Below, in pieces: positions 12,181-64,000 of a stretch of 64,000 bases of DNA (its first letter is position 1; every line of letters begins with the position of its first letter). Origin of the DNA: Candidatus Obscuribacteraceae bacterium (GTDB lineage Bacteria; Cyanobacteriota; Vampirovibrionia; Obscuribacterales; Obscuribacteraceae); assembly GCA_044226015.1 (NCBI GenBank), contig JBGAHS010000008.1:320001-384000 (forward strand). Reading direction: 5' to 3'. The notes below the pieces were generated by a model that saw only the letters and a program-made list of their open reading frames with translations, did no database searches and was not told the origin of the DNA. Made by a program: the position numbers and the translations under genes.

Positions 12181-12190
12181 GGTCTTGAGA

Positions 12191-12355
12191 TCATAGCACC
12201 GTTCTATGCAACATTAGGTGTGGGTCGTATCTAATGCCGTGGCCGTAACATGCATTCCAGCATGCTTCTGTTTTGTTGATGCAAGAGATGCGTGGCAAAC
12301 TGAATGCCGGTCCGGTCTTGCTGTTATGTGTCAATTGAAGTCCGTAAGTTTCCAT
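12191..12355 (-). pseudogene. Truncated Cys-cluster (GP88-like) gene; not in the ORF track
   Basis: METYGLQLTHNSKTGPAFSLPRISCINKTEACWNACYGHGIRY then DPHLMLHRTVL*. The NSK...FSLP...C-x6-C-x3-CY motif resembles GP88-type proteins, which are much longer. GAGGA RBS present. Confidence 0.55.
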
Positions 12356-12411
12356 TCTATTTTCCTCAAGAAAGAGGGGACGAGCATTGCCCGTCCCACT
12401 GTGTTATCGAC

Positions 12412-12615
12412 CTATCGAATTTCAAAGTAGATATTCTCCAGCCGCTGCACTTCAGCGCTGGTCGATTCAGTTTTTCTGTAGCTGTCGTAATAACGCCGAA
12501 GCGCTTCTCTGATTAGATCGGAACGAGTGCGACATTCGTACTTCGCCATCAGATCAACATTCGCAAGCAGCCGACTCGGCAAACCGATCAAGACTTTCTT
12601 GGTGTCATTGCTCAT
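12412..12615 (-). CDS. CopG/ribbon-helix-helix regulator
   Basis: KKVLIGLPSRLLANVDLMAKYECRTRSDLIREALRRY; AGGAGA RBS before ATG 12615. Confidence 0.85.
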   Translation of the reverse strand: MSNDTKKVLIGLPSRLLANVDLMAKYECRTRSDLIREALRRYYDSYRKTESTSAEVQRLENIYFEIR

Positions 12616-12897
12616 TTCAATTCTCCTTGAATTTCGCCCAGCCACCGACGAGGTGACTCCGGCATGAAACACAGCCGTGCACATGCGCCGCGCGAAATCA
12701 TTCAGTGCAATGCCTCGCTAGCGCCATCAGCGTGATGCCGTGCGGCGCATGTGCGATGAATTGAAATTGCCGGAAAAATCGAATTTCTTTGAAGAGAATC
12801 TGTAAGACGAAACAACTGGGGACAGAGTCCACTTCAAGTACATGCGCGTAGAAGGGACAATTTAAGTGAGTTCTTGGATCTGGTGTAAGATGAAATC

Positions 12898-13881: not shown

Positions 13882-13917
13882 CCACTGTTAAGAGAGTTGG
13901 CTTTAGCTCTTGTTGAG

Positions 13918-15693: not shown

Positions 15694-15764
15694 TTAGCAC
15701 CCACTAAAGCTATTGAGGAAAGGTTCTACGGAGTGACTCTCTATTCAGCAAGCAAGACAGTGAG

Positions 15765-16073
15765 CTAGTGCAAGTGATCAATTACCATGCAACATAGAGA
15801 GTCAGCCATCATTTGAAAGCCAAAAGACTGTAGTTCGCTTTTCGGGTTGTGATTCGCTATCGTACTCATCACGTATTGTTCTCCGGACTTAAGGTCGGAA
15901 GCTTCCACCAGTTTCGACCAGACTGAGTTCTGTGTCAAATGGTCTAAGAGCCGGACATGCACATACACCAACCCAAACCGTCGCGTCAGCCGAATATCAT
16001 CGCGCCAAGGCAAGAAGTAATACTCCACCACCGGGTCCTTATAAGTGCGGCGAAAAAATCTGAGCGACTCCAT
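15765..16073 (-). CDS. Small hypothetical protein
   Basis: 102-aa ORF with GGAGGG upstream of the ATG. Confidence 0.45.
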   Translation of the reverse strand: MESLRFFRRTYKDPVVEYYFLPWRDDIRLTRRFGLVYVHVRLLDHLTQNSVWSKLVEASDLKSGEQYVMSTIANHNPKSELQSFGFQMMADSLCCMVIDHLH

Positions 16074-16372
16074 GATGCGTGCCCTCCGAAATGAATATGG
16101 AATTCAAGAAGAAAATGGGTTGCCATGCAGGTCGCGAGAAAATTGCGCTGCTACTTTCATAAACGTAAAAATCATGCCAAGAGTTCAATGAAATTGATTA
16201 ATTCAGAGGGTGGACTGCATGTCTATTGCGGTGTCGGTTGCTAAGGTGAGTTAAATCATCCGGGCAGAATGGCTTGCAAACTTGTCATGAGAGAAATCAG
16301 AACGGGCTTATGGGAAACTAATGTCTATTTTCCTCGGCATCCATCCCGGTCCGTGTGGGGTTGTAAATAGCT

Positions 16373-23973: not shown

Positions 23974-23978
23974 AGGGA

Positions 23979-26819: not shown

Positions 26820-26827
26820 GGTCGATC

Positions 26828-44670: not shown

Positions 44671-47600
44671 GTGAAAGACGATGAAACCAAGGACGAAAAC
44701 AAGAAGACTGATAAGAGCGAAGATTTCGACGATAGCCCAGAGAACACCAGGCTAGAAGATAAAGCCGATATCGACGTAACGAAAACGCAGGTCAAAGACG
44801 CGACCAAGAGCCGCGCTGCTACAGCCGTTCCCGACATTGATCTTCTCGGTGCCGATCAGACCGGCGGTCTGCGCGAATTACTGCGCCGCCAGGAAGCTGC
44901 AATTGGCAAGCCTTCAGAGAAACAGAAAGCGAGCGACGCAGGCAAACCATCACAAGAGAAACGCGAAGACTTTGAGAAACTAAAGGAGTTTCAACAGGCA
45001 TTCCTCTCACCATTGGCTTCAGCGAACGAGAGACGCGCGGCGCTGGACGCAATGGAATCACTGCTGCAAAAGAAAGATGGCACTGAGGCAGCCGAACTAA
45101 AAAAGGGCATCGAAACCAATCGCAGACTAGACCAGCTTATAGGCTTGTCTAGCGATGCAGCCTCATTCAAAACAGAGAATCTGATAGCAGCACTGCAAAC
45201 GCCAACAAGAACAGACGCTGCGATTCTCGGACTTGCCGCCATCGCCAATGGTGGCAATGGAGACAAGTCGCAGGCTCTGTCAGCAACCGCTGCATTGCAG
45301 CAGTTCGTTGGAAAAGACGAGACATTTAACACTGCGCGGGCTAAGCAAGTTATCGACGCCTTGCTCGCAAGCAGGACAGCTCCGTACTCAGACAAATTTC
45401 TTGGCTTAGTGCTAGCCAGCGACCTTGCTGCAAAATCACAGCATTTTCCAGACGCATTACATCAGAGCATTCAAGAGGCATTAAGCTCAGACACAGCTGT
45501 TGGACGCGAAGCCGGATTCAACGCAATCAAAAGGCTTGGCGGCAAAGCCTCCGATGCTGATTTTAAAGCACTGCAAGAAAATATGACGCCAGAATTGGCG
45601 AAGAATATTATGGCTTTGCCACCAGATCTCTTAGCGAGAAACGACTACGCGCTGATATCAGAAGCAGTGACTCGCTTGCCCAAAGCAGAACTCAGCAAAT
45701 TCTTCACCGATGCAGCAACTCAACAGACCACGAAACTCACTGAATTAGCGAAATCCGAGCTAGCAGATGCCGGCGAAGTAAAGACGAGCAAGGGCTTGCA
45801 GCAAGCTGCCGTAAAAGGTCTGGCTGAAATTGCAAGAGGAAGAGTTCAGGATGAAGACGAAGCTACACGTGCTTACAATGCATTGAAGAAACTGGCAGAA
45901 AGTCCAGAAGCGAAACATGCTGTAATTGAAGCCATTGCCAAGACGCAGCCAGCGCGCAATTCCGACTATTGGACAATACCTCTCTTGGGGAAAACCATTG
46001 CAAGCCTGAAAGATGGCTACGAAAGCGTTGGTGAAGGGCTGCCAGAAAACGAGAAACTGGCGCTAAAAAAAGCTGTTCGCGACGCAATAGAAACCAGCTT
46101 GAAGAGCCATGCAGCGGCAGACAATCGTTGGGCGGGAAGAAGCCTATCATGGCTTGCCAAAACAATGGACGAAGAGCTCTTGAATGTATTCAAAGACAAT
46201 CTGTCTTTTGAGTCGATAAACGAGCTGTCGCCACATGTGAAGGCGATGAAACCAGAACTGCAAGCGCTGTTGCGTCAAGATTTAGTTTCGCGTGCCAGCA
46301 CAGACAGCGGCGCCGATCGCAAATCACGTGAGACTGCAATTACAGCCCTGGTTAGCTTCTTTGGAAAAGATGCGCTTGATGGCACGGGGCTTGAGGTTTC
46401 TACAGAAAAGCAAAAGGAAAACAAATCTGAAATCGCTGAACTAATAAAGGTCGCGGACACAAGCACAGGCACGAATTACGTCTTTGCTCTTCCATTAGTG
46501 AAAGGCGGAAGCACGCATCCACTTCCTCTAAGCATAGATAGGGGCGAGCCCAGCGACCCAGCTCTTCCAAAGCTGACGGAGTTTAAGTGGGAACAGGGAA
46601 GAGAGAAACCACAAGGCAATGCATACACTGGCGCTGAAAAGAGTTTTCTCACCGACACACTGAAAGAAGTTAGCGAAAAGTTTTCTAAGGACCAGAGAGG
46701 CAATGAGACTACTCTGGTTCGTGAAGCCAACAAATACAAAGTCAATGAAGAGGCAAGTCTTAAAGCCTCCACGCAGAATGGTGCAGCAATTACAGATGCC
46801 ACGCGCGCCTCGTTCAACGAATCAAAAGACACTCTGACGAAAAGCAGTGATTTCGTTGAAAGACAAAGCAACGAAAAATTGATTAGAGAAGATGTAGACC
46901 GCGCTTATCAGCAACTTCTGGGACGTAAGCCTGACTACCCCGGAGCAAACTGGGCATTGGATCTCTTCAACAGCGGCAAGAGCTACCGCGATGCACTTCG
47001 CGGAATAGCCTCAGCAGCGGAATTCAAAAATGCTATTCCGCAAGATAAAGATAAGGTCATGCCTTTTCTATATAGCAAGTTGCTACTTCGCAGCTTCGGC
47101 AGCGGCGACAATAAGGCAATGTATGAGCAGCTGATTGCCAAGGAAGGAATTGATGGCGCAATAAATTTCATTCTGAGCTCAGCCGAGTTCAATGAAATGG
47201 CTGCATCAAGAGGAAAGAATAAAGCGCCAGAACTGAAAGATGCATTGCCACCAGAAACAAACGAAAAGTGCAACGCAGCTGCCAGAACAATCGAAGACCT
47301 GCAGAATCAACTTAGGGCGAATCCGGAAAACAAATTGCTGCAAGACGCTCTTATCGCGCTGGGCGGGCTGGACAAAGCCGGCGCACCCGAGCAGACTGGC
47401 GGACCTGCCAAAGCTGGATCTAGCAAGGCGAACGAAGAGCGACAGAAGCTCATTGCTGCAAGCTTGGAAGCAATAAACAGAGTTCCCGACGGATTGCTGT
47501 CTCAACTCAAAGCACAAGACCCTGCAATGCGATTCAGGGCGATGGAAAAAATCGACCTTGCCTTGAACAGTTCAAATGACAGTGTGCTGCAACAAGCACT

Positions 47601-50600
47601 TTCTGAGAGTCGCGCTCGCATGTCGACCTTTGCATTGACGGAAAAGAGCACACCAGAAAATTATGCGCGCGCTAAAGAGAATATACAGCGAGACTTTGAA
47701 AAGGCACTAGCAGCAGGCGACAACGTGCTCGCTAACGAATTGAAAGACCGCTACAACTGGACTAACGCAGCCGGAATTATCAGTGAACTAAATGGAATAA
47801 AGACGAGTGATCAGCAAAAAGCAGCCATTCAAACAGCTGCTGGTGTTGAAGCACTTATGGATCAAGCTAGCAAAGGTAATCCTTACGCACAAGCTGCCGT
47901 GGCGATGATTCTAAATACTGGCGATGCAGCAGCCCAAAAGCGCAGCCATGACTTGCTGGCACAGGAGAAAAGTTTAACCCTTGCCGTGCCTGATATCAGC
48001 AAACTGCCAGAGCAAGCCCAACTACTGGTGCGTAACCAGGCGCTTGCATCTTTGGTCCAAAAGACAGCAATGACTAATGGTACGATTTCTAAAGCAGAAG
48101 CTAGCGCTCTCACCGATGCTCTCTTGAATGCAGAAAAGAGAAAAGACAATCAGGCTGCGAAACTCCTCTCATCAGCACTAGACCTGGCTTTGTCTTCCAA
48201 GAAGATGAGCATACCTCGTCCGGGACAAGAGCCGCTCATAGTTGATGGCAAGAAAGCAGCAAGCGAAGCGATTAATGATGCCATCAATCGTGGTGCAGAT
48301 TCGGAAACGCTGGTGAACAAATACTTGAGCTTGCTCGCATCCGACAAACAAGCAGCTCTGCTAAGCAAGGAAGATTTTAACGCTCTGGTTCGTAACGCAT
48401 CAGAAGGCAAGCCAGCCGCCATGAAGGTACTGGCGACAATTGCCACTACTGACGGTGAGCTTGCAAAAGACGCCCAAGCAAAGATGATTGAGCTTGCAGC
48501 CGGAGAGAAGACACGCGAGATCGCTCTACTTGCAACGCTTGATGCAAAAGACCCCTTAACACTCCATCGCAATGGAGCAGCAGAGCTATTCAAACAGCTT
48601 CTTGGGAAAGCTGAGCTTCCGCCTCGCGTCGAGCAAGCTATCTTAAGCAAACTGAATTCAACTGATGATTCAGAGAAAGCTGCTGGAAGAAACGCCATGC
48701 TTGCAAGCGCTGACCGTTGGATGAAGGGAGATTCGGGAGAAAATGCCTTACTGAAAGCAGCAGCCTCAAACATGAACGCTGAGCTGATAGAGCTGCTGAA
48801 AGACAAAAAAGACTTGATGCAAAACCCAGCGTTCTTGAACAAGCTAGGTCTGAGTATTGACACTGCCAACGGTGTCACCACACTTAAGCACGCAGCAAGC
48901 AACACCGAATACAAGATAAAAGATTTCAATGGCAAGCTGCGATTATTCGAGCAAAACACCTATGGTGCAGACCAGAAGCTAAGCCATGCTCGCAACAACT
49001 TGTTCGACGAGAAAACGGGTGAATTTAAGGGTGCTGAAGAAATAGACAGCACCGGCAACAAAGCAATTTTCAATAAAGACAAGCTGCTAACTGAAGTTCG
49101 GCGCTCGAGTCCCGAAGGTGAGTTTGTTAAAATTTCACGAACTAATGATGGCAAAGCCACAGCTGTCTTCGATAACTATGGACGCGGCTGGGACTCAAAA
49201 GATGGTGGCAGAACATGGGCTCGTCGGGGCAGCAATGAAAAAGCATACGGAGCACCAGAGTTTCAAGCTGGAGGTGTCATAAAATTCTCTGGCGCTGGAC
49301 CAGAAGGTAAGGTAGAAACACTGGATAAACCTTCCGGTATCGTTTGGAAATATGATGAGGCTAGAAAAGAAAGCACCGTTAGCTATCCAGACAAAAGCTA
49401 TGAAACAAAAAACGAGTCCGGCAAAACCGTCAAGTCACGCGACGCCAACGGCAACGAAAGAGAGTTCTTCTGGTCAGAAGACAGTAAGAAATTACTCGGT
49501 GTAAAAGATGAAACTGGACTCTGGCAGGCAAGCCCAGATGGCACTCACTGGCAAAACCTCAATGCACCAGACCAACCCACACAAATTGGCACACGCACCG
49601 TCGATACAGCCGGATATCACATTCGAAATAGCGGTGCAAGCGAAAAAATATTCCGCAGAGACGGCTCAGTATTGGAAATTAAGTCTGAAAAAGAGCAATC
49701 GATTCACGACCGCCATGCCAATAAAATTGACCTCAAATTCGAAGGCAAAGAGCTCCGCGAAGTCAATGAAAATGGAAATGTTTGGCGTCGCAAAGAAGGC
49801 GCCCCCGAAGACAAGTCTCTCTATTTAATAGTAGACGGAAAACCCACTGAGACTAAGGCTAAATTCGAACTAAGCGACGACCGCAGCAAACTAAAGAGAA
49901 TAATCGAAACAGCCACCGAAGCAAAAGACGGCGCCGTAAAAGGGTTCTTCAAAGAAACCGAGTACAGGTCCGATGGCACTATGCTTGCCCGAGACGAACA
50001 AGGCAGAGTGCGCCGATCGCGCAACCGGGATGGGGAACTAAGCAACATTGAATACCTGGACAAAACGAATGTTGTGGCTAGAATAGGCACCAGTTTTCCA
50101 GATGGGCACGAGGAAATCACAGCATTACGAAATCCATCAAAGCCAGAAGAGGAGTACATAAAGACATTCTGGCAGCGAAAAAGCCCAGGTTCTGACGAAC
50201 TTGTAAGAGAAGATGTCACGAAAGAAAATTGGAACATCTCTGCTCTATCGGTTGACCATGCAACTGGTAGCATAAAAGCATCTGAAGTCACAGTTATTTC
50301 TTCCAATGAATCGGGTGAAAGAAGGCGACGTTCTCACGCACTGGTTGTTTCGTCTCTCGACAATGGCAGCATTGCATTCCAACGACATGACGCAGGCTTG
50401 CTCATTAGTGATCGCTATAACGGCAACCAGACTCGTAGCTCATATAAATGGGCAGCGGAAGGCTCGCTTTCAAGTACAAGCACGATTCGCGGAAGAGATG
50501 CCAGCTGCACCTACGATGCGGCTGGCAATCTGACAAGAGTTGAGGGCTTATCTAACAACCAGAGCTTCGAAATTAAACGCGGCGAAAATGGTTCAATCGA

Positions 50601-53600
50601 AATCGCAGAATCAAATGGCACGCGATGGCAATCAGCTGACGGCAAGACATTCACCAACCCAGCGACACAACAAACCTTCAGCGGCGAATTTTTCGCTAGC
50701 ACTGACGGTAAATATGGATTTAAAATTCCGGGTTCAAGCGAAAGCACTATTATCAGAGACGTAGCCAGGCGAGAGACTATTTTCTCGCCTCCAGAGCGCT
50801 TTCAGATACAGAGGCTGGTAAAGGATGTAACAAGCGTTGCACTCACGGACAACAACGCGATAATTCAGCGCGACGCCAATGGCAGAACCCTGGCACTAGT
50901 GAACCCCGATGGAAAAATTGTACGAGCAACACGCGATGCTTCAGGCAACGTGCAAGAACTCAGCATTACAGACCCTCGCAGCAATCAAGCAATGACTTGG
51001 AAAAAAGATGGCGCGCGCTTGCTGCTTACACGCGGAGCAGAAACAGAAGATCTAGGTAATTCAAAACTAGAGCTTAGTGATCGCGGAGAGATAGTTCAAA
51101 TCTCTGACAAAAACAAGATTGAATATGTCCGAAAAACTGATGGCACTGAGATAAGAAGACTGCAAGGCTCTTCCGAGTTTGATGGAAAGCAAAATTTCCG
51201 CTACGTGGTCGACAGACCTGACGGCAGCATAGCAGAGTATCACTATCGAGTTCATGCGGAAGGGGCGGCAGAGAATCTTGAGGTAGTGAAAACTGGCACA
51301 AGAAACATCGACTCATCTCTCAATGCTGAAACCGTCATGCGGAAGATGCCTAACTCGAATCCCCAAGAGCCGACATGGTACTACTCAGATTCGGCTGAGA
51401 TTCGTTCTGGCGCTATGAAAATGGGACAGACCTGGAAAGGCAGTCAAAACTTCGACCCAACGAATGGAGAGTTCAGCACTATTGGTGCAAAGCCAGGAGA
51501 AAAAGCAGCTCGAATTCGCGAAACAGCTGATGGATGGAGACAAGAAGCTGAGTCTCCTGTACTTAGCAAACGCGGCATGGGCGGAGAAATCGTCTACAAA
51601 TCGAGCACTGGCGAAGTTAACAAGATAGCAGATCGCAACGGGCGAAACATCGACATCAAACACACTGATGGACAGATCTCTGAATTGTCAATTACAGAAA
51701 AAGGTGGAAAAGAAGCATCAGAAAAATTCAGCTCAGCAGACGGCAAAACGTGGAGCCGCAAATTCCGTGATGCTGCTAGCGGCGAATGGAAAGAAGAGAA
51801 ATTCAGCGGACATGCTTCGGTCGACAGCGAAGGCGTCATAAGAATCAGGAAAGCAGGAGCTGACTTCATCACGCTGCGCCCCGAAGGACAACGCATCACG
51901 CACGACAAGGCAGCAGGCATCACGCTGGTAGAGAAAACCAATGGTGAAAGAGAGAGAGTCGGCTTCGGTCCAAACAACAAAGTAAACCGAATATATAATT
52001 CAGACAATAGCTATACAGCCACCGACGACGGTGTCAACTGGCGCAGCTACGACGCGACTGGCAAACTGAAGACCGACAGCGCTAAACAGCAAATTGTAGA
52101 ATTCGACGAAAAAACAGGCACCATTACCACCCAGGCAAAAGATGGCAGCCGAGTTGAAATGAAAGGAGGCGACGGCAGCCTTCGCATCTACTCTGCAGTT
52201 GGTCCTAAAGAACAATCACTCGTTCTTACCTACGATAAGAATGCACGAGCCGATGTCACCGAAGTACGCTACGAACAAGGCAAGAAAATAGAAACAGTTG
52301 TTAGTTACGCCAACAAAACTGTGCAGAAATTCAACGGGGATGATCTGCTCAGCTACATGAAGGACATCCGAGGAAAAGAAACATCCATCAGCTGGGAAGG
52401 AACACCGCCGCGCTCAACAATAAAATCATTTACTGACGAAAGCGGACTCAATTTCGAACGCCACAGCGCTGGTTTTTACCTGGCAAAAAACAGACATGGA
52501 TTCGTCGTAGATAGATATGATGGCACAGTGTTCGTCAACTCCGAAGGCAAACTAGAGAGAATATTCGGTACTTCATCAAACATAGTTGGTCAAGACCGCG
52601 GCGTCACGGCTGCAAACGTAAGAGAAATACGCGGACTCGACGGCAATGTTCTGAATCTTGTCGGAAACAAAGGCGTCACAGTTAGAAATTCCGAAGGATT
52701 ATTGCAACGAAGCATCGATGGCACAGGGTTTGTCAGACAGTTCGAATTTGGAGACAAGGACCGCTGGGGACAACCATCGCTCGATAAAGTAATCATCGGA
52801 GAAGGCAATGGAGAATACTCCATAAGCCGTCAATACTGGTATTGGGAAGACGCAGCAAAATCAAAAATGGCTCCAAAGTGGCTGCGCAGCGATGGCAAAG
52901 CATTGTACGACCACGACTCCAAAGCACATCAAAACTGGCGGGTTGATCACACAACTGGCGATATGTTTTGTTATCGCAATGATTTTGTGACCGAGCACTT
53001 CAATCTGGAGTCAGGCAAATGGACAACAGGAGATGAATCGAGCGTTCGCGCGAAAGCAGATGAGATAAAGACGATTGCGGACAGATATTCCATTCAATAC
53101 TTTTTTGATCCTAACGGACGTTACAGAGAACTAAACGATCAGCTCAAAGATCTCTCTGCCGACCAGATTCAGGCAGTCAAAGACTACCTGATGTCCAAGG
53201 CATTGAACATCAACGAATATGTGAATCACAAGTACAGCAGAGGCAGCGTCGAAAATACCGTACTTAACGGACACCTGAGACGCATAGGGCACACGCGCGA
53301 TGCGCACAATGTCGAGCTTGCTGAACTTGCATTGAAGCAGGCTCTGGCAGAAAAGACCCAGCGAGGTTACCGCACAAATCTTGAAGTTGAGAAAGACCTC
53401 AGAGACAAAATTTCGCCTCTGAACCAAAGACAAATTGCAATGCTAAACGATGGCTATGCAAAAGAGCATGACGGCAAGACTGTACTTGAAGATATGAAAG
53501 TGGACCCAAGCTGGAAACGTAGCTCTGCATTGCATAAGGAGGCAATGGAAAGCTACCTGACTAAAGGCAAAGGCAATCGAACTGTTGAGGAAGAACTCAA

Positions 53601-56600: not shown

Positions 56601-59600
56601 ACCAGAAGAACTTGGCAAACAGATACTCACACTCAATGAACGTTCCAGAGAAAACTTCGCTAGCACTGAAAAAGAAAACTTGGGGTCTGTTTTTTACGGA
56701 GAACAAAAGGAATTCATCGAGAAGATTCTGGCAACACGAGGAGAACTCGGCATCGAGGACAAACTAAAGGCGATTCATGTTGGAATTCTTCCAAAAGAAG
56801 ACTTGATAAAAACAATCAATGAAATAAAAGCCATGGATGAACGACGCCAGGTCGCCAACAACTATGCCACCAAATACAATGCTGACTTGATATCGCAAAT
56901 GAAGAGCGTTGCAGCCTCTGCAGACCAGGGGCGCATTGAGATTGCGTTGCGATTTAGAGACATGACTGCACTTGAGCAACTATACAAAGCTCAAGACCAC
57001 AGCAACCGCGTTACCCGAACTGGTTGGGATACGCAGGGCTGGAACTCAACTAAATATCAGCTAGACAATCGCATGGGTGAACTGACTAAACTCATCGGTG
57101 GAGACAATGCAAACTTCAGAGAAACAGAGCAAAGCAAGATTGACGAATCTCTAGATGCAGTCTGGGAAGCACAGCGTGGAATATCCGAAACCCAAAAAGA
57201 GATGGCGAACGTCGCCAGAGAAATCATGATAGCAGCAGCAGCAACAGTGCTGACGATTGCATCAGGCGGAACCATGTCCTGGGCAGCGATAGCGCTCTTC
57301 ACGTTAGCAGCTGCCGCGGGTTCCGCAGCACTAACAAAGCTTGCCATGGGTGATAATGTCACCACAGATGATATGAAAGAGGCAGCAAAAGACGGGGCAA
57401 AGAGCGCCTTTATTCAGAGCCTGGGACCTGGACATTTGCAAAAGCTAACAGGCTTTGGTGCGACTGCAGCAAAAACCGCTGCAAATCAGTTGCTTAAAGA
57501 GGCTGCTTTCAAAGGACTAAGTGAAGCGGAAAAGAAAATTGTCCAACAGGAAATCGAAAAAACTGTAGTAAAAATGCTGCGCCAGGGCGCACAAAGTGCT
57601 TCTATGAAGGGGATTGACCAGCAAATAAATCACGCTGTCATGGAGCTTCTTCAAAAGAGTCCTATAACCGGAAAAATAATGGAAGGTCTTGGACAAGAGG
57701 GCGCGCAGCTGCTCGGTAAAACCTTCGAAAAGTCTGCCCACGAAGCAATCATGAAGCTGGGCTCTAGATATGTTGAAAATGAGATGCAATCGACTCTACA
57801 GAGAGTGTGGAATGCTGCGGCCAGAGAGGGGTACTCCGCAACACTAAGCCACGGCGCAGCAACAGCAAGCTCACTGGTTGTCGAAACAGCCGATATGATG
57901 TGGCACGGCAAAATCACCGTGGGAAATATTCTCGATGGTTCAGCGTTTAGCGACAAAGAGATATCATCACAGTACGCCAAGAGCATTTTTCACGCCAACC
58001 TCGCCGCCGGTGCCGGTCACTGGGCCGGCAGGGCAAGCCACCATCTAGTGAACCCTGAATCGATTGCCAATCGCCTTGCACTGACACAGAAGTTAGACCC
58101 GACAACAATGCGAATGATGAGCAGTGGATTTCTCAGCGAGCGCTCAGCCCGACTGATAGGTAATGTCACCCACTTCACCGCCTCTGGTGCCTTTATGGTT
58201 GGCGGCATGTCAGGCTCAAATCTGATAGCCGGAGGTGTAGAGAATCTTCTATATGGCAAGGTTGTTTCCCCAACGGAAAACATGAGCAGCCTCATTCAAT
58301 ACAGCATTGCGCCCTTCATCACCGGTGTACATGGAACCTATGCCGCCGCAGGCAGAGCAAACATAGGACGAGCAAGTTACAACTTGAACCATGAAGCTAC
58401 GGTAAAGCCAAGCGCAGAACCGATTCGAGGAAGCCAAGCCGGAGAGACAAAAATCGTAAAATACCAGAGTCCCACACTGGAAAATGCACGATTCGAAAAG
58501 CCGGTTGTCATCGAAGATGGCAAAGGAAGCATTTCATCGGGAACTGTTGAGCTCCGCACAACTCACGACGCGTCAAACGCCACAAGCGAGCCTGCAGCAA
58601 AACTACTGGCAGATGTACCGGCTGGACAAACGCTTAAGATTGTCGTGTCAGATCCAGCTGCCTTAAAGAATTTCGAAATCGCCAGTTCTAGCAAGGGCAA
58701 GGTAGAGCTATATATCGCGCAAGACCACCCCGGACTTCGAGATCTCTTAAGCGAGCACGTCCACAGAATTGCTGAAGGACAGGTTGAACTCAAGACTCTT
58801 GGGTTGAATGGGGAAAGCAAAGCAATCATCTCCCAAGAAATGGCTCGATCATTAATAGCACAAGTAGAATCGGTAGATGGACTTTCTCCGCTATGGCGCC
58901 CCGAAAGACACCTTAACGGAAGCGAACTTGCAGCATTGTCTGCTCAGCTGGGTGACAATGCCGGTAAGCTAAGTGATGCGGCAGTAGCGCAAAAGTACCT
59001 TGAGCAAGTTGGTCGCACCATAAGTGATGCCCGAGAGCCTCTGCGACAAACTGCCGAAGAATTCAAAGCCATAAGAGATAACTTCGAAACGACAAAAGCA
59101 AGCCTTGAAGCAGAATTAGCAAAAGAAGGATTGAGGCTGCCGCAAGAAAAGGACTTCGATGCAAGCAGCTTACATGAGTGGTCACGAAAAGATGCTAGCG
59201 GCAAGCGCAACGAAATTGTCAGCAAATTTTTAGCTGAGAGAGAAACTCATGCGGAGGCTCTAAAGGCGCTAAATCAAAAGATTGACGCCAGTCTCAAAAC
59301 GATAGAAGACGCAATCAATAAGTTCAATTCAAGAGAAGGAATTCCACCGGTCAGCCTCAAAAGATATGGTGATTTGCACGTGGCTGACGCATCATATCGC
59401 GATGGTGTGATAAAGGTAAAAACTGAAGACCTCATAAATAACCCAGGCAAGCTGTTGATAAACACTTATCACGAATCTGCGCACGTAGCACAGGACGCAG
59501 AGGCACTCAAGTCAATTCAGCATACTCTGGCTGCAGCTCAGAAATTTGGTGTTAAACCAGAAGAAGTTACAGCAGAACAGAAACTCAAAGTCAGCGCCGA

Positions 59601-62600
59601 TGAGCTTTCCAAAGTATCTGCCGAACGAGTTGCGGAGAGGTATGCAGAGCTCAGTAAGCATAGCCACGATAAGTCGTTCGAAAAGCAATGGATGAGTTTC
59701 GTTGCTAAATCACTTGAGTTGCCAGCACTTGGAAAAGAACAGCTTTCGCGAGCAGACAACTTGATAAAGAGCTTTGCAGAAATCGGTGCGTACAAGGGAC
59801 AAAGCGAGCATGAGATAAGGCAAGACTACAACGCAATAAAGTCTGCCAAACAGCACATCAATTCAGAGTCTGGTGTAGGCGCACAAGAACTGCTGCTACT
59901 TATGAAAAAAGCTGCTGCTGGCGACGCCACTGCCATGCAATTAGCGCGGCGTATTTTCGGTTCAGATGCTGAGCATCTAGTTGCAGGAAAGAAAGAGGCG
60001 GCAGTAGCTCCGACTGATGCAGCTCGAGCAGAAGCTCAAAAGGAACGCTTTGACGCGATTCGAGATTTATACGAGCTAGCTTTGAATCTTGACCCCAATA
60101 ATCCTAGCCCAATCACTGAAGCAAAAGCGAAAGCGCTGTTTGAAAAGCTTATGGAAAATCGAGTTGCTCAGCTAAATGAGCAGCTCATGGATGCATACAA
60201 TCAATACATGCGCATGCACGAGGCTGATGCACTGGCTGCAGAAAATTATTTGCGTCGTGTTGCTGGTGACGGTTTAGAAAGACTCAACAAGTCAGCCGCA
60301 ATTGAACTACCAACAGATGCACTCGGCGATGTCCACAGCTCTGCCGGGCAAATGCCGAGCATAAAGAATAACAACCCAACGGCAGCAACTTTAAACAATT
60401 TACGTCCGGTAGAGAACCTGCTTGCTCCCGTAGACAGGCTTATAACAGAAAAGGCAACGCATTCAAATAGAGAGCCTCTCAAAAAAGTCATGAGAGACTT
60501 GCTTCGCCATGTACCAGCAGAGCAGCTCGAATCATACGCGAATAAATTTGCTGAAGCGGCAAAGGTTGAAGGTTTCATCACGCGCCTGGCTCACATAAAA
60601 GAGATTACAGACAAATTCCAGCAAGGAAAGGCAGACATCGCCGCAGTTCCGCTTGACCTACTGCTAGACAAAAACATCACACTTCAAACCTTAGCGGCGT
60701 TCAAAAACAGTTTAAAACCTGGAGGCATCTCAGAGGCAGCCAGAGAGGCTTTTGTCGACCCGATTCTACGCGCAAACAAGCCCCAAGAAGTTGCCGACAG
60801 GGTTTCTACTGCAGCAAAGTACGACCTCGCAGTTGCACAAAAAAAACTCTTCGCATTTCAGTTTGGCGAAATAGCAGCGCTAGACCCCACCTGCAGAAAA
60901 CACATTGTAGATTCACTTATTGAGCGTCAACTAAATAGCTCCACAAACATGGAAGGATTCAGACGAGCAGTCGATGATGCAGTGGAGACTGCAAAAATAT
61001 ACAAGAGCTTGTTTGAGATAAAAGCACTGGACCCAAAAGTGCTCTCAACGCCAGGTCGAGATGGGCTAGATCACCTTGTCAAAGACCTCGGACAAAAGCT
61101 TCTTGAAGGAGAGATTGATAAAACAACATTTTCAAAGGCAGTCACAGAAAGGCTAAATCTAATTAGCAGCTTTCTGCAGAGCACAAAAAATGGTGCCAAC
61201 CTACTCGCTGAAGCCCGTTCAAGAAATCCACAACTAACAAATGCTATCTTCGAGCCCCTAATGAAAAGTCCGCTCTCAGAGAAAGCGTTGCAGAATGCAA
61301 TTGAAACCGTAAGCAAATACGAGAAGCTGAAAAACACGGAACCAACTTTAGCTTCAGCCTTGCTTGCGATTAAGCCATCGGTTCGCGCGCAATTGATAGA
61401 CCCTTTCGTAGGAAGCACACATCACAAAAATTACGTTGTAGAGCTGCAGAGGACGATAAGCGAGAGCAACGACGGCGGAATTGCGCTGGCAACAGCATTC
61501 AAAAATCTCTTTAAGCAATCACCAAAAGTGGCAGAAGAATTGCACAATGACTTACGTGCAGAACGCATTACAGGTGAGCAATTCTCGCTGCTAGCTCAAT
61601 GCCCGGAAGAAACTAGAACAGCATTGCAGAGCTTGTTCAAAAAGCACCTGGCTGCAAATCTGGCAGGGGAAGAGAATCTATTCAGACTAATCACAGCTGT
61701 CCATGCTATCAAAGACAGCACGCCGACGAAACAAGCGAAAGCAATAGAGTCGTTCGCACGAGAGATGGCAGTTCAAAGCGAATCACCCAGCAAACAAAGC
61801 TGGGAAAAAATAGCAGAGCTTGCTGCAAGCGATTCTCCCAACAGGGACATGCTTGTCAAATCAATGATATTGAACAAGAGAGACTTAATTCAATGGCTGA
61901 ATTCCCTGGAGTACTCAAAGATTGGAAGCATAAAGGGACCTGAACTGATATCGCGACTGCTTGATTGTGGTTCATCCCCAGAACTGAAAAATCTGGGCGC
62001 TGGGCAACAGTCAAGATTTACGAATAAGCTTAGCAACATCTTGGCAGAAACAGGATTGCCAACAGAAGCCGGCTTGCGAGAAGCACAAATTGAGAAATAC
62101 GCAGCTCTATTTAGAGCACTACCAACTCAAGACATAGCTCAAGCAAACTATGGCTTAGCAAAGCTATTGGACAAGATGAATGCAAATGATTTTGCGCGAG
62201 CATCAGACTCCACGGTAGCTGACTTGATGCGACTCTTTGAGAATAAAGCTGAAAATATGCTTGAAGAAGACCGCGGAGCAACAATAAAGAAACTCATCGA
62301 TTCTTTGCAAACAACGCAAGAAGGTAAAAAACACGAACTCATTGCTGCCACAGTAGCAAAATTGACTACCGAAGCAGATATTCGTGAAATGCAAGCAGAA
62401 ACACGAGCACAATTCAGGCAAGCAGCGATTGAATATCTCGACAAGCTAGAAAGTAAGTCTCGGGCCGACAATGAAGCCAGAACAGCGCAGCGCATTGAAG
62501 TGCTTATCGATAAACTATTTCCAGCAGCTATCGACAGATCAACTGCAGACAGGATATTTGGAGGGCTTACGGAAAGCCAGAGAAAAATCCTTCTTGAACA

Positions 62601-64000
62601 TAGAGAAGAGTTTCTTTCGCAGTCAGGCATGAGAAAAGTATTTGATCAAGTTGCAGTCGAGATAGAGAAAGCAATTCGAATAGGGCAAGCCGATGGATGG
62701 GCAGGCTTCACACACAAAAAGATGGTGCAACGAATTACTGCAGTTGCTACAACCGAAGAGGGAAGAGCTCTTGCTTACGAGTTTCGCAAAAGCACAGGCA
62801 TAGAGGTAGTCCTCAAGACACCTCAACAATTGGAGCCCGGCGAAAAAGCGGTGTTGTTTGAAAACAACCTGAAGATGAAACAGGAAGACCGAACAATCCT
62901 TGCAAGAAACAAGCAAGTTCTGCAACCCTCGAAGATACAGGAGTTTGGTCAAGGACTTAACATGTTTGACATGGCTGTTTCAAAATCGAACCCAAGCCAC
63001 CTGCAGGAACGTATAAGAACCATACTTGCTTTGCCTGATTTAGCATTCTCGACATCTGGCAAGATTAGCGATGCTGAGTTCGCTGCAATTAATAGACCGG
63101 TAGAAGATGCAAGAGAAATAGGCATGACCAGAGCTCTGGCTCATTTCAGCAAACAGAGTGATGCAGCAAGAGAACTTTCCTACGCTGTAAATGAAATGAA
63201 CATCGTCAGCAATACGGACTTTGCCCAAGCAATGCGTAGCGTACACAAGCAATTATTCGGGCAAGCACACAATCCGGGAAGCGAGCTAGCGCAAGGCATA
63301 ATTTTCGTGGACCTATCACGCAACAAGGCAGGGTCTTCTGGGACTGCAGACAGCTCTCACCTGGCTATGCACATGTACAGACTGGCAAATGGTCTCAGCG
63401 ACTCCAAATATGACAGTCACTTCGTTTCGAAAGAGCAAGCGAAGGCCATTATAGCTAGAGCAGGAAGCACACAGTCATTGAAAGTGATTGCCATAAATGA
63501 TTGCATCGGCTCTGGAGGCGAAACCTCAACAATAGTTGGCGACCTCGCAAGTATGAGAGCTCAGAATAGTAAGGTCGAAATCAAAATCGGACTCGCCATA
63601 GCCTCGAAAGAAGGCACAAGTAAAGTCACCATCGGTAAGCCAGCTGAAGGCGAAAAAGGCCGCACAATCACAGAAAATGACAAGATACAAATCGTCTCTG
63701 GAATTCCTCCACTGAGTGATTTCCTTACAAACGTACAAAGAGCACTACCTGCTGGCGGAAACAAATTCGTAGCAAGCCTGCAAGATATGGCATACAAAAA
63801 AGGCGCAGTAGAGCCAACCGGATTTAGCTTTGAGTACATGTTCCCGAATACCACTTCCCGCCGTATGGCAGAAGTATTAGATGCTGTCGGTATAAGAGGA
63901 GCAGCAAGTGCGACAAGGATTCAGACCTTCCCCGATACAGTAGGTCCGCCATTTTCTCAAAAGGAAAGCATAAAGGGACTGAGTAATTTTGCCAAAGTTG
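44671..64000 (+). CDS. Giant multidomain protein (>6,400 aa, 3' partial), polymorphic-toxin-like; not in the ORF track
   Basis: Last in-frame stop is TAA 44605-44607 and the first start is GTG 44671. Every stretch I translated in this frame is open and protein-like up to base 64000. The track lists no ORF in this frame after 44671, as expected if no stop closes it. Confidence 0.92.
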   Translation, partial: MKDDETKDENKKTDKSEDFDDSPENTRLEDKADIDVTKTQVKDATKSRAATAVPDIDLLGADQTGGLRELLRRQEAAIGKPSEKQKASDAGKPSQEKREDFEKLKEFQQAFLSPLASANERRAALDAMESLLQKKDGTEAAELKKGIETNRRLDQLIGLSSDAASFKTENLIAALQTPTRTDAAILGLAAIANGGNGDKSQALSATAALQQFVGKDETFNTARAKQVIDALLASRTAPYSDKFLGLVLASDLAAKSQHFPDALHQSIQEALSSDTAVGREAGFNAIKRLGGKASDADFKALQENMTPELAKNIMALPPDLLARNDYALISEAVTRLPKAELSKFFTDAATQQTTKLTELAKSELADAGEVKTSKGLQQAAVKGLAEIARGRVQDEDEATRAYNALKKLAESPEAKHAVIEAIAKTQPARNSDYWTIPLLGKTIASLKDGYESVGEGLPENEKLALKKAVRDAIETSLKSHAAADNRWAGRSLSWLAKTMDEELLNVFKDNLSFESINELSPHVKAMKPELQALLRQDLVSRASTDSGADRKSRETAITALVSFFGKDALDGTGLEVSTEKQKENKSEIAELIKVADTSTGTNYVFALPLVKGGSTHPLPLSIDRGEPSDPALPKLTEFKWEQGREKPQGNAYTGAEKSFLTDTLKEVSEKFSKDQRGNETTLVREANKYKVNEEASLKASTQNGAAITDATRASFNESKDTLTKSSDFVERQSNEKLIREDVDRAYQQLLGRKPDYPGANWALDLFNSGKSYRDALRGIASAAEFKNAIPQDKDKVMPFLYSKLLLRSFGSGDNKAMYEQLIAKEGIDGAINFILSSAEFNEMAASRGKNKAPELKDALPPETNEKCNAAARTIEDLQNQLRANPENKLLQDALIALGGLDKAGAPEQTGGPAKAGSSKANEERQKLIAASLEAINRVPDGLLSQLKAQDPAMRFRAMEKIDLALNSSNDSVLQQALSESRARMSTFALTEKSTPENYARAKENIQRDFEKALAAGDNVLANELKDRYNWTNAAGIISELNGIKTSDQQKAAIQTAAGVEALMDQASKGNPYAQAAVAMILNTGDAAAQKRSHDLLAQEKSLTLAVPDISKLPEQAQLLVRNQALASLVQKTAMTNGTISKAEASALTDALLNAEKRKDNQAAKLLSSALDLALSSKKMSIPRPGQEPLIVDGKKAASEAINDAINRGADSETLVNKYLSLLASDKQAALLSKEDFNALVRNASEGKPAAMKVLATIATTDGELAKDAQAKMIELAAGEKTREIALLATLDAKDPLTLHRNGAAELFKQLLGKAELPPRVEQAILSKLNSTDDSEKAAGRNAMLASADRWMKGDSGENALLKAAASNMNAELIELLKDKKDLMQNPAFLNKLGLSIDTANGVTTLKHAASNTEYKIKDFNGKLRLFEQNTYGADQKLSHARNNLFDEKTGEFKGAEEIDSTGNKAIFNKDKLLTEVRRSSPEGEFVKISRTNDGKATAVFDNYGRGWDSKDGGRTWARRGSNEKAYGAPEFQAGGVIKFSGAGPEGKVETLDKPSGIVWKYDEARKESTVSYPDKSYETKNESGKTVKSRDANGNEREFFWSEDSKKLLGVKDETGLWQASPDGTHWQNLNAPDQPTQIGTRTVDTAGYHIRNSGASEKIFRRDGSVLEIKSEKEQSIHDRHANKIDLKFEGKELREVNENGNVWRRKEGAPEDKSLYLIVDGKPTETKAKFELSDDRSKLKRIIETATEAKDGAVKGFFKETEYRSDGTMLARDEQGRVRRSRNRDGELSNIEYLDKTNVVARIGTSFPDGHEEITALRNPSKPEEEYIKTFWQRKSPGSDELVREDVTKENWNISALSVDHATGSIKASEVTVISSNESGERRRRSHALVVSSLDNGSIAFQRHDAGLLISDRYNGNQTRSSYKWAAEGSLSSTSTIRGRDASCTYDAAGNLTRVEGLSNNQSFEIKRGENGSIEIAESNGTRWQSADGKTFTNPATQQTFSGEFFASTDGKYGFKIPGSSESTIIRDVARRETIFSPPERFQIQRLVKDVTSVALTDNNAIIQRDANGRTLALVNPDGKIVRATRDASGNVQELSITDPRSNQAMTWKKDGARLLLTRGAETEDLGNSKLELSDRGEIVQISDKNKIEYVRKTDGTEIRRLQGSSEFDGKQNFRYVVDRPDGSIAEYHYRVHAEGAAENLEVVKTGTRNIDSSLNAETVMRKMPNSNPQEPTWYYSDSAEIRSGAMKMGQTWKGSQNFDPTNGEFSTIGAKPGEKAARIRETADGWRQEAESPVLSKRGMGGEIVYKSSTGEVNKIADRNGRNIDIKHTDGQISELSITEKGGKEASEKFSSADGKTWSRKFRDAASGEWKEEKFSGHASVDSEGVIRIRKAGADFITLRPEGQRITHDKAAGITLVEKTNGERERVGFGPNNKVNRIYNSDNSYTATDDGVNWRSYDATGKLKTDSAKQQIVEFDEKTGTITTQAKDGSRVEMKGGDGSLRIYSAVGPKEQSLVLTYDKNARADVTEVRYEQGKKIETVVSYANKTVQKFNGDDLLSYMKDIRGKETSISWEGTPPRSTIKSFTDESGLNFERHSAGFYLAKNRHGFVVDRYDGTVFVNSEGKLERIFGTSSNIVGQDRGVTAANVREIRGLDGNVLNLVGNKGVTVRNSEGLLQRSIDGTGFVRQFEFGDKDRWGQPSLDKVIIGEGNGEYSISRQYWYWEDAAKSKMAPKWLRSDGKALYDHDSKAHQNWRVDHTTGDMFCYRNDFVTEHFNLESGKWTTGDESSVRAKADEIKTIADRYSIQYFFDPNGRYRELNDQLKDLSADQIQAVKDYLMSKALNINEYVNHKYSRGSVENTVLNGHLRRIGHTRDAHNVELAELALKQALAEKTQRGYRTNLEVEKDLRDKISPLNQRQIAMLNDGYAKEHDGKTVLEDMKVDPSWKRSSALHKEAMESYLTKGKGNRTVEEELKLAKMAAEYLPASFPKELQDKNLDSVREALIEQQNSRRGRKSIAAVDAYVDMLRQDRLALVQEFLGEGRVDDNVRQAFAENKELGKAYLENNLLLSSQRKADGNYEFKNGIFVSRNDAGRVMALAMDAVNLGKVSEATQMELGNWATGNSKADIDRIFHGMSDSDRKRIQLGMDIRMALDAPGKNEKHSDSQIAAGKVISEKLQSGALLPHNLTPRDKQELAHFRRAEAKKLLEDPEKGFQARAALASYDQLYKTAGRQSMWGDERNERFRKEYLQAAAGADFSHEMGEKNISMMWWNSSKDEHMKSVENMDERSFSLLTSNTNLRELMFSHMRKNFDYDRGIDARKLLEAKFQFVEDLMEGKEKLRLGTAFGEEQRARLKELLPGTRSMSDSAFQDLMSQRALSKDIEAGRKLREQIERGKQYESMMSFAEQLTKDIAEGKRIEKQLNSRDTDILALYRRSKKTEPELTAPEKQAEAFARADLQKYRDSISNQQGESKLSETEKKSIAAFDKFQSLLKIEEKVKDGLRIQKNIEEGRLLAGSLEKNASSFKDKLTDEQKAQIDLFERSTGKAPGLSAGEKENLALSRAWQQKQADPLLASFKRGNEITDTLAQKNPESRAEYRKALSPEDRAALSLYQDMNAAKELNKEIEAGRKLSHSILDGSLENATPNTEQTRQLQVYRAYMSGKLPEADKLALEKLQAIDKAGDAKPGDTALSKESADALEKNLAGMQQLHSLQQYNEDKSGLKLYLDGLDVARQLNGMLVAKQVEAMKALETDPARAHEKAALEYFRKTTFEIARDNIRRDISEVISDVDHTFSKDYKALFDAVVGMKPDERKRYAGDEDYRKQIDDAVSNLLKSYPDALAATKHLLLQIKDDPTKAPQKDLVFDLLAKAQDGKRSAAEAAFAIQEAFNVPAGKELKRKLDANSPDYDERYAKAFDAAWKRHLPLSAHRPDAPARDRGPITSFNDFKTRVLDDLNANGHLKISTIRDLRGGAVISPEELGKQILTLNERSRENFASTEKENLGSVFYGEQKEFIEKILATRGELGIEDKLKAIHVGILPKEDLIKTINEIKAMDERRQVANNYATKYNADLISQMKSVAASADQGRIEIALRFRDMTALEQLYKAQDHSNRVTRTGWDTQGWNSTKYQLDNRMGELTKLIGGDNANFRETEQSKIDESLDAVWEAQRGISETQKEMANVAREIMIAAAATVLTIASGGTMSWAAIALFTLAAAAGSAALTKLAMGDNVTTDDMKEAAKDGAKSAFIQSLGPGHLQKLTGFGATAAKTAANQLLKEAAFKGLSEAEKKIVQQEIEKTVVKMLRQGAQSASMKGIDQQINHAVMELLQKSPITGKIMEGLGQEGAQLLGKTFEKSAHEAIMKLGSRYVENEMQSTLQRVWNAAAREGYSATLSHGAATASSLVVETADMMWHGKITVGNILDGSAFSDKEISSQYAKSIFHANLAAGAGHWAGRASHHLVNPESIANRLALTQKLDPTTMRMMSSGFLSERSARLIGNVTHFTASGAFMVGGMSGSNLIAGGVENLLYGKVVSPTENMSSLIQYSIAPFITGVHGTYAAAGRANIGRASYNLNHEATVKPSAEPIRGSQAGETKIVKYQSPTLENARFEKPVVIEDGKGSISSGTVELRTTHDASNATSEPAAKLLADVPAGQTLKIVVSDPAALKNFEIASSSKGKVELYIAQDHPGLRDLLSEHVHRIAEGQVELKTLGLNGESKAIISQEMARSLIAQVESVDGLSPLWRPERHLNGSELAALSAQLGDNAGKLSDAAVAQKYLEQVGRTISDAREPLRQTAEEFKAIRDNFETTKASLEAELAKEGLRLPQEKDFDASSLHEWSRKDASGKRNEIVSKFLAERETHAEALKALNQKIDASLKTIEDAINKFNSREGIPPVSLKRYGDLHVADASYRDGVIKVKTEDLINNPGKLLINTYHESAHVAQDAEALKSIQHTLAAAQKFGVKPEEVTAEQKLKVSADELSKVSAERVAERYAELSKHSHDKSFEKQWMSFVAKSLELPALGKEQLSRADNLIKSFAEIGAYKGQSEHEIRQDYNAIKSAKQHINSESGVGAQELLLLMKKAAAGDATAMQLARRIFGSDAEHLVAGKKEAAVAPTDAARAEAQKERFDAIRDLYELALNLDPNNPSPITEAKAKALFEKLMENRVAQLNEQLMDAYNQYMRMHEADALAAENYLRRVAGDGLERLNKSAAIELPTDALGDVHSSAGQMPSIKNNNPTAATLNNLRPVENLLAPVDRLITEKATHSNREPLKKVMRDLLRHVPAEQLESYANKFAEAAKVEGFITRLAHIKEITDKFQQGKADIAAVPLDLLLDKNITLQTLAAFKNSLKPGGISEAAREAFVDPILRANKPQEVADRVSTAAKYDLAVAQKKLFAFQFGEIAALDPTCRKHIVDSLIERQLNSSTNMEGFRRAVDDAVETAKIYKSLFEIKALDPKVLSTPGRDGLDHLVKDLGQKLLEGEIDKTTFSKAVTERLNLISSFLQSTKNGANLLAEARSRNPQLTNAIFEPLMKSPLSEKALQNAIETVSKYEKLKNTEPTLASALLAIKPSVRAQLIDPFVGSTHHKNYVVELQRTISESNDGGIALATAFKNLFKQSPKVAEELHNDLRAERITGEQFSLLAQCPEETRTALQSLFKKHLAANLAGEENLFRLITAVHAIKDSTPTKQAKAIESFAREMAVQSESPSKQSWEKIAELAASDSPNRDMLVKSMILNKRDLIQWLNSLEYSKIGSIKGPELISRLLDCGSSPELKNLGAGQQSRFTNKLSNILAETGLPTEAGLREAQIEKYAALFRALPTQDIAQANYGLAKLLDKMNANDFARASDSTVADLMRLFENKAENMLEEDRGATIKKLIDSLQTTQEGKKHELIAATVAKLTTEADIREMQAETRAQFRQAAIEYLDKLESKSRADNEARTAQRIEVLIDKLFPAAIDRSTADRIFGGLTESQRKILLEHREEFLSQSGMRKVFDQVAVEIEKAIRIGQADGWAGFTHKKMVQRITAVATTEEGRALAYEFRKSTGIEVVLKTPQQLEPGEKAVLFENNLKMKQEDRTILARNKQVLQPSKIQEFGQGLNMFDMAVSKSNPSHLQERIRTILALPDLAFSTSGKISDAEFAAINRPVEDAREIGMTRALAHFSKQSDAARELSYAVNEMNIVSNTDFAQAMRSVHKQLFGQAHNPGSELAQGIIFVDLSRNKAGSSGTADSSHLAMHMYRLANGLSDSKYDSHFVSKEQAKAIIARAGSTQSLKVIAINDCIGSGGETSTIVGDLASMRAQNSKVEIKIGLAIASKEGTSKVTIGKPAEGEKGRTITENDKIQIVSGIPPLSDFLTNVQRALPAGGNKFVASLQDMAYKKGAVEPTGFSFEYMFPNTTSRRMAEVLDAVGIRGAASATRIQTFPDTVGPPFSQKESIKGLSNFAKV

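Follow-up and report, generated by a model that had tools for sequence, protein, structure and literature searches.

Toxins of the MARTX type carry a string of central effectors, a protease and repeated linkers. In the annexin-bearing, PVC-type class of polymorphic toxins, an annexin domain precedes the toxin domain, and passages of two reports suggest that annexin domains in this position contribute to the breaching of membranes or to delivery (Zhang et al. 2012, PMC3482391; Kodavali et al., PMC3894181). In the polyvalent proteins of phages and conjugative elements, one to five zincin metallopeptidases (MPTases) are interspersed along the chain, according to parts of a report in which they are proposed to be autoproteolytic (Iyer et al. 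2017, PMC5512222); the main text of that report has 0 occurrences of annexin. Here, we analyse a giant open reading frame (ORF) located at the end of a 64,000-nucleotide stretch of DNA (the window; contig JBGAHS010000008.1, positions 320,001 to 384,000) from a Candidatus Obscuribacteraceae bacterium. The ORF probably encodes a chromosomal polymorphic multi-effector toxin with a new annexin-hairpin delivery chassis, a member of an Obscuribacterales-specific family.

A conserved chassis with exchangeable cargo

The ORF starts with GTG and occupies positions 44671..64000 of the window on the forward strand. Its frame (+1) contains 0 stops in 6,443 codons, compared with 352 and 382 stops in the other two forward frames. 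The stop lies 3,932 nt beyond the window edge, and the encoded protein totals 7,753 aa, 6,443 codons of which are inside the window. In the source genome (G000; 8.2 Mb, 92% complete), the full ORF is G000:C12:364671-387932, coordinates on contig C12 being those of the window plus 320000. Since a public-collection protein of the same length (P0002) differs at 40 of 7,753 positions, the ORF is not a one-off assembly artefact; the gene is genuine and complete past the window. A preliminary description, made from the sequence of the window, had claimed an open ORF of more than 6,400 aa, which the translation bears out. All the features that it listed, helical regions included, are present in the protein; it had overlooked the annexin repeats and the last 1,310 aa, which lie past the window, as well as the spread across the family.

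Homologues at five loci belong to Candidatus Obscuribacterales, including Ca. Obscuribacter phosphatis, and G000 itself encodes four members of the family. Among 1.84 billion representatives, a profile of the core (aa 3751-4330, built from 17 sequences) gave 1,250 matching clusters at E ≤ 0.001, of which 755 remained at 1e-10 and 403 at 1e-30. In a survey of 250 other genomes of the class, some of which had helped to build the profile, the core was found in 65 of the 72 genomes of the same family, weakly in 3 of 73 from one other family and in 0 of the remaining 105. Homologous open frames reach 13,497 and 18,420 aa. The family is large, Obscuribacterales-specific and apparently undescribed: no description was found in the literature searched, a search that left subscription journals outside, and Obscuribacterales were not found paired there with giant proteins or annexin. 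In the portions of text covered by that search, Melainabacteria and polymorphic toxin co-occur only in outgroup and reference passages, and the main text of a giant-gene preprint (10.1101/2023.11.21.568195), the supplements of which could list such proteins, has 0 occurrences of annexin or Obscuri-.

As the preliminary description had anticipated, homologues keep the N-terminal chassis and exchange enzymatic C-termini; invariant non-enzymatic C-termini were not seen. Two orthologues align with the giant protein from aa 1 to 4,946 or 5,231 (39-56%) and then diverge, and the two larger homologues, with frames of 13,497 and 18,420 aa, align at 30-35% until similarity ends. A protein from genome G007 has a chassis that is about 23% identical, yet shares aa 7237-7745 at 48%. 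In the 128 of 149 hairpin-bearing representatives that extend at least 400 aa past the hairpin, the cores form 1 cluster and the last 200 aa form 61, a number perhaps inflated by contig-end truncations. Enzyme motifs accumulate behind the hairpin; counts after versus before it in the 149 proteins are 62 versus 2 for HExxH, 6 versus 0 for CX5R and 11 versus 0 for the DD motif of phosphoribosyltransferases (PRTases). The cargo of other members includes FHA (the commonest named domain), HD, transglutaminase-like, DUF6782, PRTase, phosphatase and GP30.3 domains, and LysM occurs in 2 of 20 members scanned. The family combines a conserved N-terminal part with exchangeable C-terminal domains. Upstream cyclase-like genes are the same, by eye, in G000, G006 and G025, which, together with the wide distribution of the core in family genomes (65/72), argues against encoding by a phage or a conjugative element.

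Swapped cargo is accompanied by matching neighbours. Three G000 paralogues (positions given without strand: L031, C11:406378-421575; L032, C11:1122786-1130378; L030, C5:113839-123069) have one domain in common and related downstream genes. This domain, characterized by conserved K-x-H, K, F-T-x-Y and R residues, is present in 45 of 104 family genomes and adjoins FHA-type repeats in two of the three paralogues. Its motif resembles that of phosphothreonine lyases, but PDB gave no match, and RamC_N matched weakly in 2 of 32 (E 0.004). At 10 of 29 further loci, the domain is terminal and the stop can be seen, and 9 of these 10 have an abutting gene of 134-158 aa; 7 of the 9 genes show homology, by BLAST or hidden Markov model (HMM), either among themselves or with the G000 genes. 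Similarly, G002 and G009 share a terminal domain and a downstream gene (E 2e-23). Judged by position and homology, these small cargo-matched genes are candidate immunity genes. The chassis kept under swapped cargo and the matched small genes next to paralogues support the proposal, made in the preliminary description, of an undescribed giant effector-delivery protein.

Organization of the giant protein

All features described in this section are on the forward strand. The core includes a helical region with divergent annexin repeats (53041..56985), recognized by family profiles and models and best defined at aa 2906-2946 and aa 4026-4095 (56746-56955), and a hydrophobic Ala/Gly helical hairpin (aa 4178-4227, 57202..57351) with the consensus AAxAxxxTGGxSL. 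The hairpin, which is putatively membrane-inserting, had been reported exactly where it lies (57223-57333). It is the sole hydrophobic segment of the giant protein and is found in 149 of 150 family representatives. PDB annexins were matched by the core profile at E 6e-9 and by a wider family profile at E 4e-25. Pfam Annexin was detected in all 20 scanned representatives, which we picked from the 150, and exceeded the cut-off in 19; a family annexin model identified 346 repeats in 138 of 149 proteins. By sequence and fold, the family possesses an annexin domain, the giant protein's own repeats being weak. By its language-model features, the stretch aa 3901-4400 leans to DUF637 (0.84) and PT-TG (0.83), values below 0.9 that serve as a lead only. 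The family would supply a new membrane-entry module, in which annexin repeats are combined with a hairpin, and would widen the known bacterial annexin repertoire.

The first cargo-side domain is a zincin-type metallopeptidase (aa 4860-5200, 59248..60270) and is a candidate releasing peptidase. It features HESAH at aa 4934, which corresponds to the HExxH peptidase of the preliminary description, followed by an invariant QD and a distal E; the H, E, H, Q, D and distal E residues are invariant in 11 aligned copies. The domain has no Pfam or PDB assignment (best PDB row E 0.048), and rows of spike proteins were discarded as helical noise. Homologues contain 1-3 related copies per chain, and copies occur in 36 of 150 representatives. 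A stand-alone 665-aa protein encoded at G000:C7:642564-644561 has the family HExxH domain (E 5.5e-18) without the toxin chassis.

Downstream, one or more helical cargo modules (aa ~5235-5985, 60373..62630) show little or no similarity to the sequence sets compared. They are followed by a PRTase-CE module (aa ~5990-6420, 62638..63930) that is above the Pfam cut-off and related to retron PRTase_III-A (E 9e-5), retron type III-A PRTases (described in part of PMC13712802) being the comparison. Next comes a dual-specificity, Siw14-TpbA-like phosphatase (aa 6437-6575), the first codons of which are at 63979..64000 and the rest past the window. It has an intact HCAHGKDRTG motif, is closest to TpbA/DSP1/Siw14 (E 4e-8) and scores over the Pfam cut-off as a Tc-R-P/DSP phosphatase. 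The PRTase-like domain had been correctly recognized earlier but described as open at the window edge; it ends at about 63930, and the edge cuts the start of the phosphatase. Farther past the window are a mobile domain (aa 6815-6935), which from its motif we take to be PD-(D/E)XK-like (nuclease-like), and a terminal module pair (aa 7237-7753) composed of a probable beta-helix and a helical HELAGH domain; PDB and atlas searches assigned neither. The giant protein contains several effectors within one chain, and its PRTase-CE and phosphatase are C-terminal domains of the conflict-effector type.

Within the close clade, a linker motif of the form G-[DEQ]-[FM]-x-[MS]-[WF] recurs between cargo modules. 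A five-residue pattern for it, [DEQN][FM][ARQP][MS][WF], often preceded by Gly, was defined post hoc from these same sequences, in which it was counted twice in the giant protein (plus one relaxed match), twice in G006, five times in G002 and 11 times in the larger G025 protein, against a genome background of 0.016 per 1,000 aa. The relaxed match, GQMPSI (60346..60363), lies where the closest orthologue ceases to be similar (aa 5231). The second copy, GEMRSW (aa 6593), follows the phosphatase, and the third, TEMRSW (aa 7198), precedes the swapped terminal module; both are past the window. Copies are always downstream of the first peptidase domain, and neither the other G025 orthologue nor any of four more distant homologues has the pattern. 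Copies 2 and 3 are identical at 61 of 90 nt, and no DNA repeat family covers the linkers. The linker may be a cleavage site or a domain-shuffling junction.

The N-terminal part consists of a leader and several repeat regions. The leader (aa 1-62, 44671..44856), a putative export or chaperone signal, is charged and poorly hydrophobic and ends with VPDIDLLG, its version of the motif [LV]Px[VL]x[LI]xD that recurs in the family. The first 45 aa have no signal-like hydrophobic stretch (maximum 10-aa hydropathy -0.11), in agreement with the charged N-terminus without signal peptide that had been noted. A HEAT-like helical region (aa 77-620, 44899..46530) is conserved in the four closest homologues (32-44%). 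Of 5 aligned orthologous N-termini, 2 gave a HEAT_2 match (E 1.4e-6), consistent with the HEAT-like helices proposed earlier; the region of the giant protein itself has no Pfam HEAT match and no PDB match. The linker-like domain of the preliminary description is a DUF4214/phycobilisome-linker-like domain (aa 722-842, 46834..47196; Pfam DUF4214 and PBS_linker_poly) and, since it sits in an alignment gap relative to the closest orthologues, is a variable insertion. A second helical region, rich in Ala and Leu (aa 845-1390, 47203..48840), was delimited by composition and has no Pfam match at E 0.1. The beta-rich region (aa 1400-2790, 48868..53040) is RHS/YD-related, as had been suspected: RHS_repeat and TIGR01643 match at aa 2068-2103, and the family profile of the region (A4) detects solved Rhs cores with E values from 5e-13 to 3e-9. 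Pfam rows for Anthrax_toxA (E 0.03) and Colicin_E5 (E 0.01) in the repeat region were below the cut-off and were discarded.

Large ORFs are frequent in G000, in which 65 are at least 2,000 aa long (largest 14,391 aa). A signal-like N-terminus is present in 40 of the 65, and these signal-bearing ORFs apparently form a second giant family. In the window, four large genes occur in a run (16373-30766, forward strand; 1,839, 693, 946 and 1,312 aa), probably a defence island; the last, judged by eye, is restriction-modification methylase-like.

Export, targets and alternative readings

We infer that the giant protein is exported, enters a membrane, cleaves itself and is toxic to a target cell, its architecture reading as a leader, a stalk, a membrane-entry core and an exchangeable effector string. 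It would be synthesized without a Sec signal, as judged by proxy, and a dedicated export system would read the charged leader and the LPx[VL]x[LI]xD strand. The HEAT-like and RHS/YD-related regions, assigned by homology, would act as a stalk or shell. Annexin repeats would dock at the target membrane and the single hairpin would insert, as homology and hydropathy suggest. Once the cargo has entered the target, the HExxH peptidase might cut the recurring linker and free the modules, by analogy with the MARTX cysteine protease, a step that we rate as plausible but somewhat short of probable. The modules could then hit phospho-signalling or inositol/poly-phosphates, phosphoribosyl pyrophosphate (PRPP) and nucleotide pools and perhaps nucleic acids; domain identity is established for the phosphatase and the PRTase.

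A signal-like hydrophobic stretch occurs in 2 of 137 family N-termini. The leader ends with LPx[VL]x[LI]xD in 37 of the 137 by regular expression (mean 1.7 in 200 shuffles), and expectation maximization located the motif in 97, at median position 53. In G000, 41 of 5,867 ORFs pass a leader test, compared with about 13 expected from internal windows and 4-16 from shuffles; other L-X pairs are also enriched up to threefold, and composition explains part of the signal. A leader HMM is weak, with 24 N-terminal, 2-6 internal and 2 shuffled matches at 12 bits. Eight of 20 leader proteins that we picked have a Pfam match (LysM, RHS, PepSY, ChaN twice, lytic transglycosylase, thioredoxin-like and trypsin) and 12 have none.

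Scans of the Pfam and TIGRFAM type revealed no recognized trafficking domain in the giant protein. In G000, at 92% completeness, FHIPEP (type III), VipB (type VI) and sheath PF04984 were not found, nor was PF03135, VirB4 being detected with other models; a ShlB search gave no match in any control genome. The export candidates of G000 are Tad-like loci (two, at C9:380-387 kb and C11:221-228 kb) and type IV pilus loci, all read by eye, and a minimal type IV-like locus identified with profile models (L067, G000:C10:63035-71022; positions without strand), which contains VirB4/TraC, VirD4, Replic_Relax and two small genes. VirD4 is present in 67 of 72 genomes of the family, in 2 of 2 others of the order (69/74) and in 0 of 176 others of the class. 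Nearly always single-copy, and mostly 72-86% identical, it would be a housekeeping-like export candidate because it is near-universal in the order. The relaxase-like gene at the locus suggests DNA transfer. The VirB4/VirD4 machine is the best order-wide candidate for export, a tentative choice.

Other genes related to this machinery were observed. A second VirB4/TraC-like gene (L068, G000:C1:182285-185976) is split in two frames with stops within the match, and is either a broken gene or an assembly error. In G007 (contig C2; L029:3-2117 and 5357-18346), VirD4 is about 3.8 kb upstream of a toxin-family gene; the pair was not counted, as by our estimate such adjacency occurs by chance about once in about 70 genomes. 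In the window, a fragment within a 227-aa frame (9974-10252, reverse strand) matches TrwB_AAD_bind, a coupling-protein family, and is likely a mobile-element remnant. The predation system predicted for Vampirovibrio is described as T-type and partly plasmid-borne in a portion of PMC4451040.

We lean slightly towards bacteria, kin included, as the likeliest family-wide targets, because paralogues have candidate immunity genes. Several observations weigh against this choice of target or the toxin reading as a whole, besides the possible inflation of C-terminal clusters. The giant gene itself lacks an adjacent candidate: the immunity gene expected earlier after its stop is missing, the end of a convergent endonuclease gene lies 34 nt beyond that stop, no co-oriented gene comes next, and a plausible co-oriented adjacent partner accompanies just 5 of 11 giant genes checked. 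The annexin repeats of the giant protein have no Pfam match and score weakly with the family model (12.6 and 10.5 bits, versus -0.9 for the reversed sequence). They also lack GxGT, which we take to be the Ca2+-binding loop motif of annexins; the best repeat reads GILPKED versus GAGTDE in the family consensus. With an all-helical AlphaFold model of the core (pLDDT 84), Foldseek ranked annexins first, none at E ≤ 0.001, and VIA superposed model residues 276-345 on giardin (Z 8.8, rmsd 2.0, 68 aa) and matched annexin I domain 1 (Z 7.4) along with many generic bundles, Z values below about 13 being common for helical models. The hairpin resembles pore-forming SmhB/AhlB weakly (E 0.056-0.19), and the PRPP loop of the PRTase reads ND versus DD in 4 of 4 aligned homologues. 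The giant-gene locus is not linked to any export machine; as for VirB4/VirD4, kin have genes in common, and VirD4 also occurs in toxin-less genomes. FHA, phosphatase and HD domains also serve in ordinary signalling, and G000 contains at least 106 Hanks-type kinase motifs.

The convergent neighbour of the giant gene (L001:11966-12892, reverse strand) encodes a DNA/RNA non-specific endonuclease (Pfam E 1e-49) that, by eye, lacks a signal peptide and has the same type of leader. No orphan toxin-immunity cassettes are evident in the 7 kb after the giant-ORF stop, and no family-wide search for them was made.

The same mechanism could have another target. An immunity gene is missing beside the giant ORF and 3 other giant homologues, a pattern that favours MARTX-like delivery of effectors into eukaryotic prey or hosts such as algae and protists. 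Annexin repeats would then bind to lipids of eukaryotes, with the phosphatase and the FHA-linked modules jamming eukaryotic signalling; the co-occurrence of annexin repeats with a DSP1/Siw14-like phosphatase fits this picture, as does the membership in the class of the algal predator Vampirovibrio chlorellavorus (part of PMC4451040). However, the cargo-matched small genes after paralogues, the retron-associated, bacterial character of PRTase-CE, LysM in 2 of the 20 members scanned and the failure to find the core (E 1e-10) in 175 of 178 genomes from the other families of the class make a eukaryotic target unlikely.

A membrane-anchored signalling scaffold of the producer cell, with the hairpin as anchor and with FHA, phosphatase, HD and peptidase domains serving a Ser/Thr-kinase network, would agree with the kinase motifs of G000 (at least 106), with FHA as the commonest named cargo domain, with the missing signal peptide and with the type III, type VI and sheath components not found in that genome. 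It is nevertheless improbable, since extreme C-terminal turnover upon a fixed core fits an arms race better, and RHS-related repeats with LysM, divergent cargo-matched partner genes and modules swapped between distant chassis all argue against it. A giant surface adhesin or S-layer-like protein, bearing passenger enzymes outside cells, would account for the long repeat stalk, the DUF4214 domain and helical bundles that weakly match staphylococcal and streptococcal adhesins structurally, but is very improbable given 135 of 137 family N-termini without a signal-like stretch, cargo that needs cytoplasmic substrates (PRPP, phosphoproteins) and variable, enzymatic C-termini.

The multi-effector toxin is therefore retained as the preferred reading. 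Speculatively, and with a good deal less conviction than for the toxin itself, Obscuribacterales might possess an unrecognized contact-weapon system in which a vertically inherited, minimal VirB4/VirD4 machine or another exporter reads the leader on dozens of signal-less proteins per genome; giants of up to 18,000 aa would insert, and the zinc peptidase would cut GDFAMW-type linkers to yield up to a dozen effectors, a MARTX-like strategy of independent cyanobacterial origin. Obscuribacterales are uncultured, and giant toxins that are multi-copy and family-wide (65 of 72 genomes), if confirmed as such, would mark them out as predators or active antagonists. The family also provides hundreds of unassigned effector domains paired with potential immunity partners, as well as what may be a new export signal and a self-cleavage motif, and its modules are testable in E. 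coli, in yeast or in vitro without culturing the organism.

Comparison with known systems

The giant family resembles the PVC-type polymorphic toxins described in parts of PMC3482391 in several ways: a delivery part conserved at the N-terminus is joined to C-terminal toxins that vary, immunity candidates are adjacent, a metallopeptidase is present and an annexin domain comes before the toxin. In contrast to the single annexin domain and PVC metallopeptidase of those toxins, it features several annexin repeats, YD repeats and a hairpin; the peptidase is located after the hairpin, open frames extend to 18,420 aa, and G000 yielded no sheath gene. The N-terminal PVC metallopeptidase DUF4157 had no match in the giant protein.

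Polyvalent proteins (parts of PMC5512222) similarly combine many unrelated effectors per chain, PRTases and type IV transfer, and the interspersed zincin MPTases reported for them are found in the giant family. The family differs in being encoded by a chromosomal, family-wide gene and in having a membrane-entry core and annexins. The likeness to CdiA and to pre-toxin translocation regions (DUF637, PT-TG) is a language-model lean only, a lead below 0.9; unlike CdiA, the giant protein showed no TPS domain, haemagglutinin repeat or signal peptide.

The poor fit to the RHS and MARTX classes remarked on in the preliminary description is confirmed. In common with RHS/YD toxins, the giant protein has YD repeats homologous to solved Rhs cores, but it lacks PxxxxDPxG and a match to RHS-associated core models; one DPxG, at aa 2813, is followed by the helical core and not by a toxin. 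Moreover, a helical core of about 2,400 aa separates the repeats from the cargo, which far exceeds one encapsulated domain. No RTX/MARTX repeats were found (0 GGxGxD, no Pfam match), effectors are C-terminal and not central, and six segments covering the giant protein gave no match to the C80 cysteine protease, the protease here being a zincin. As in MARTX toxins, one giant chain unites an effector string, a protease and repeated inter-module linkers. By its defining features, the giant protein is not an RHS, MARTX or PVC toxin, though it would work like the MARTX or RHS toxins.

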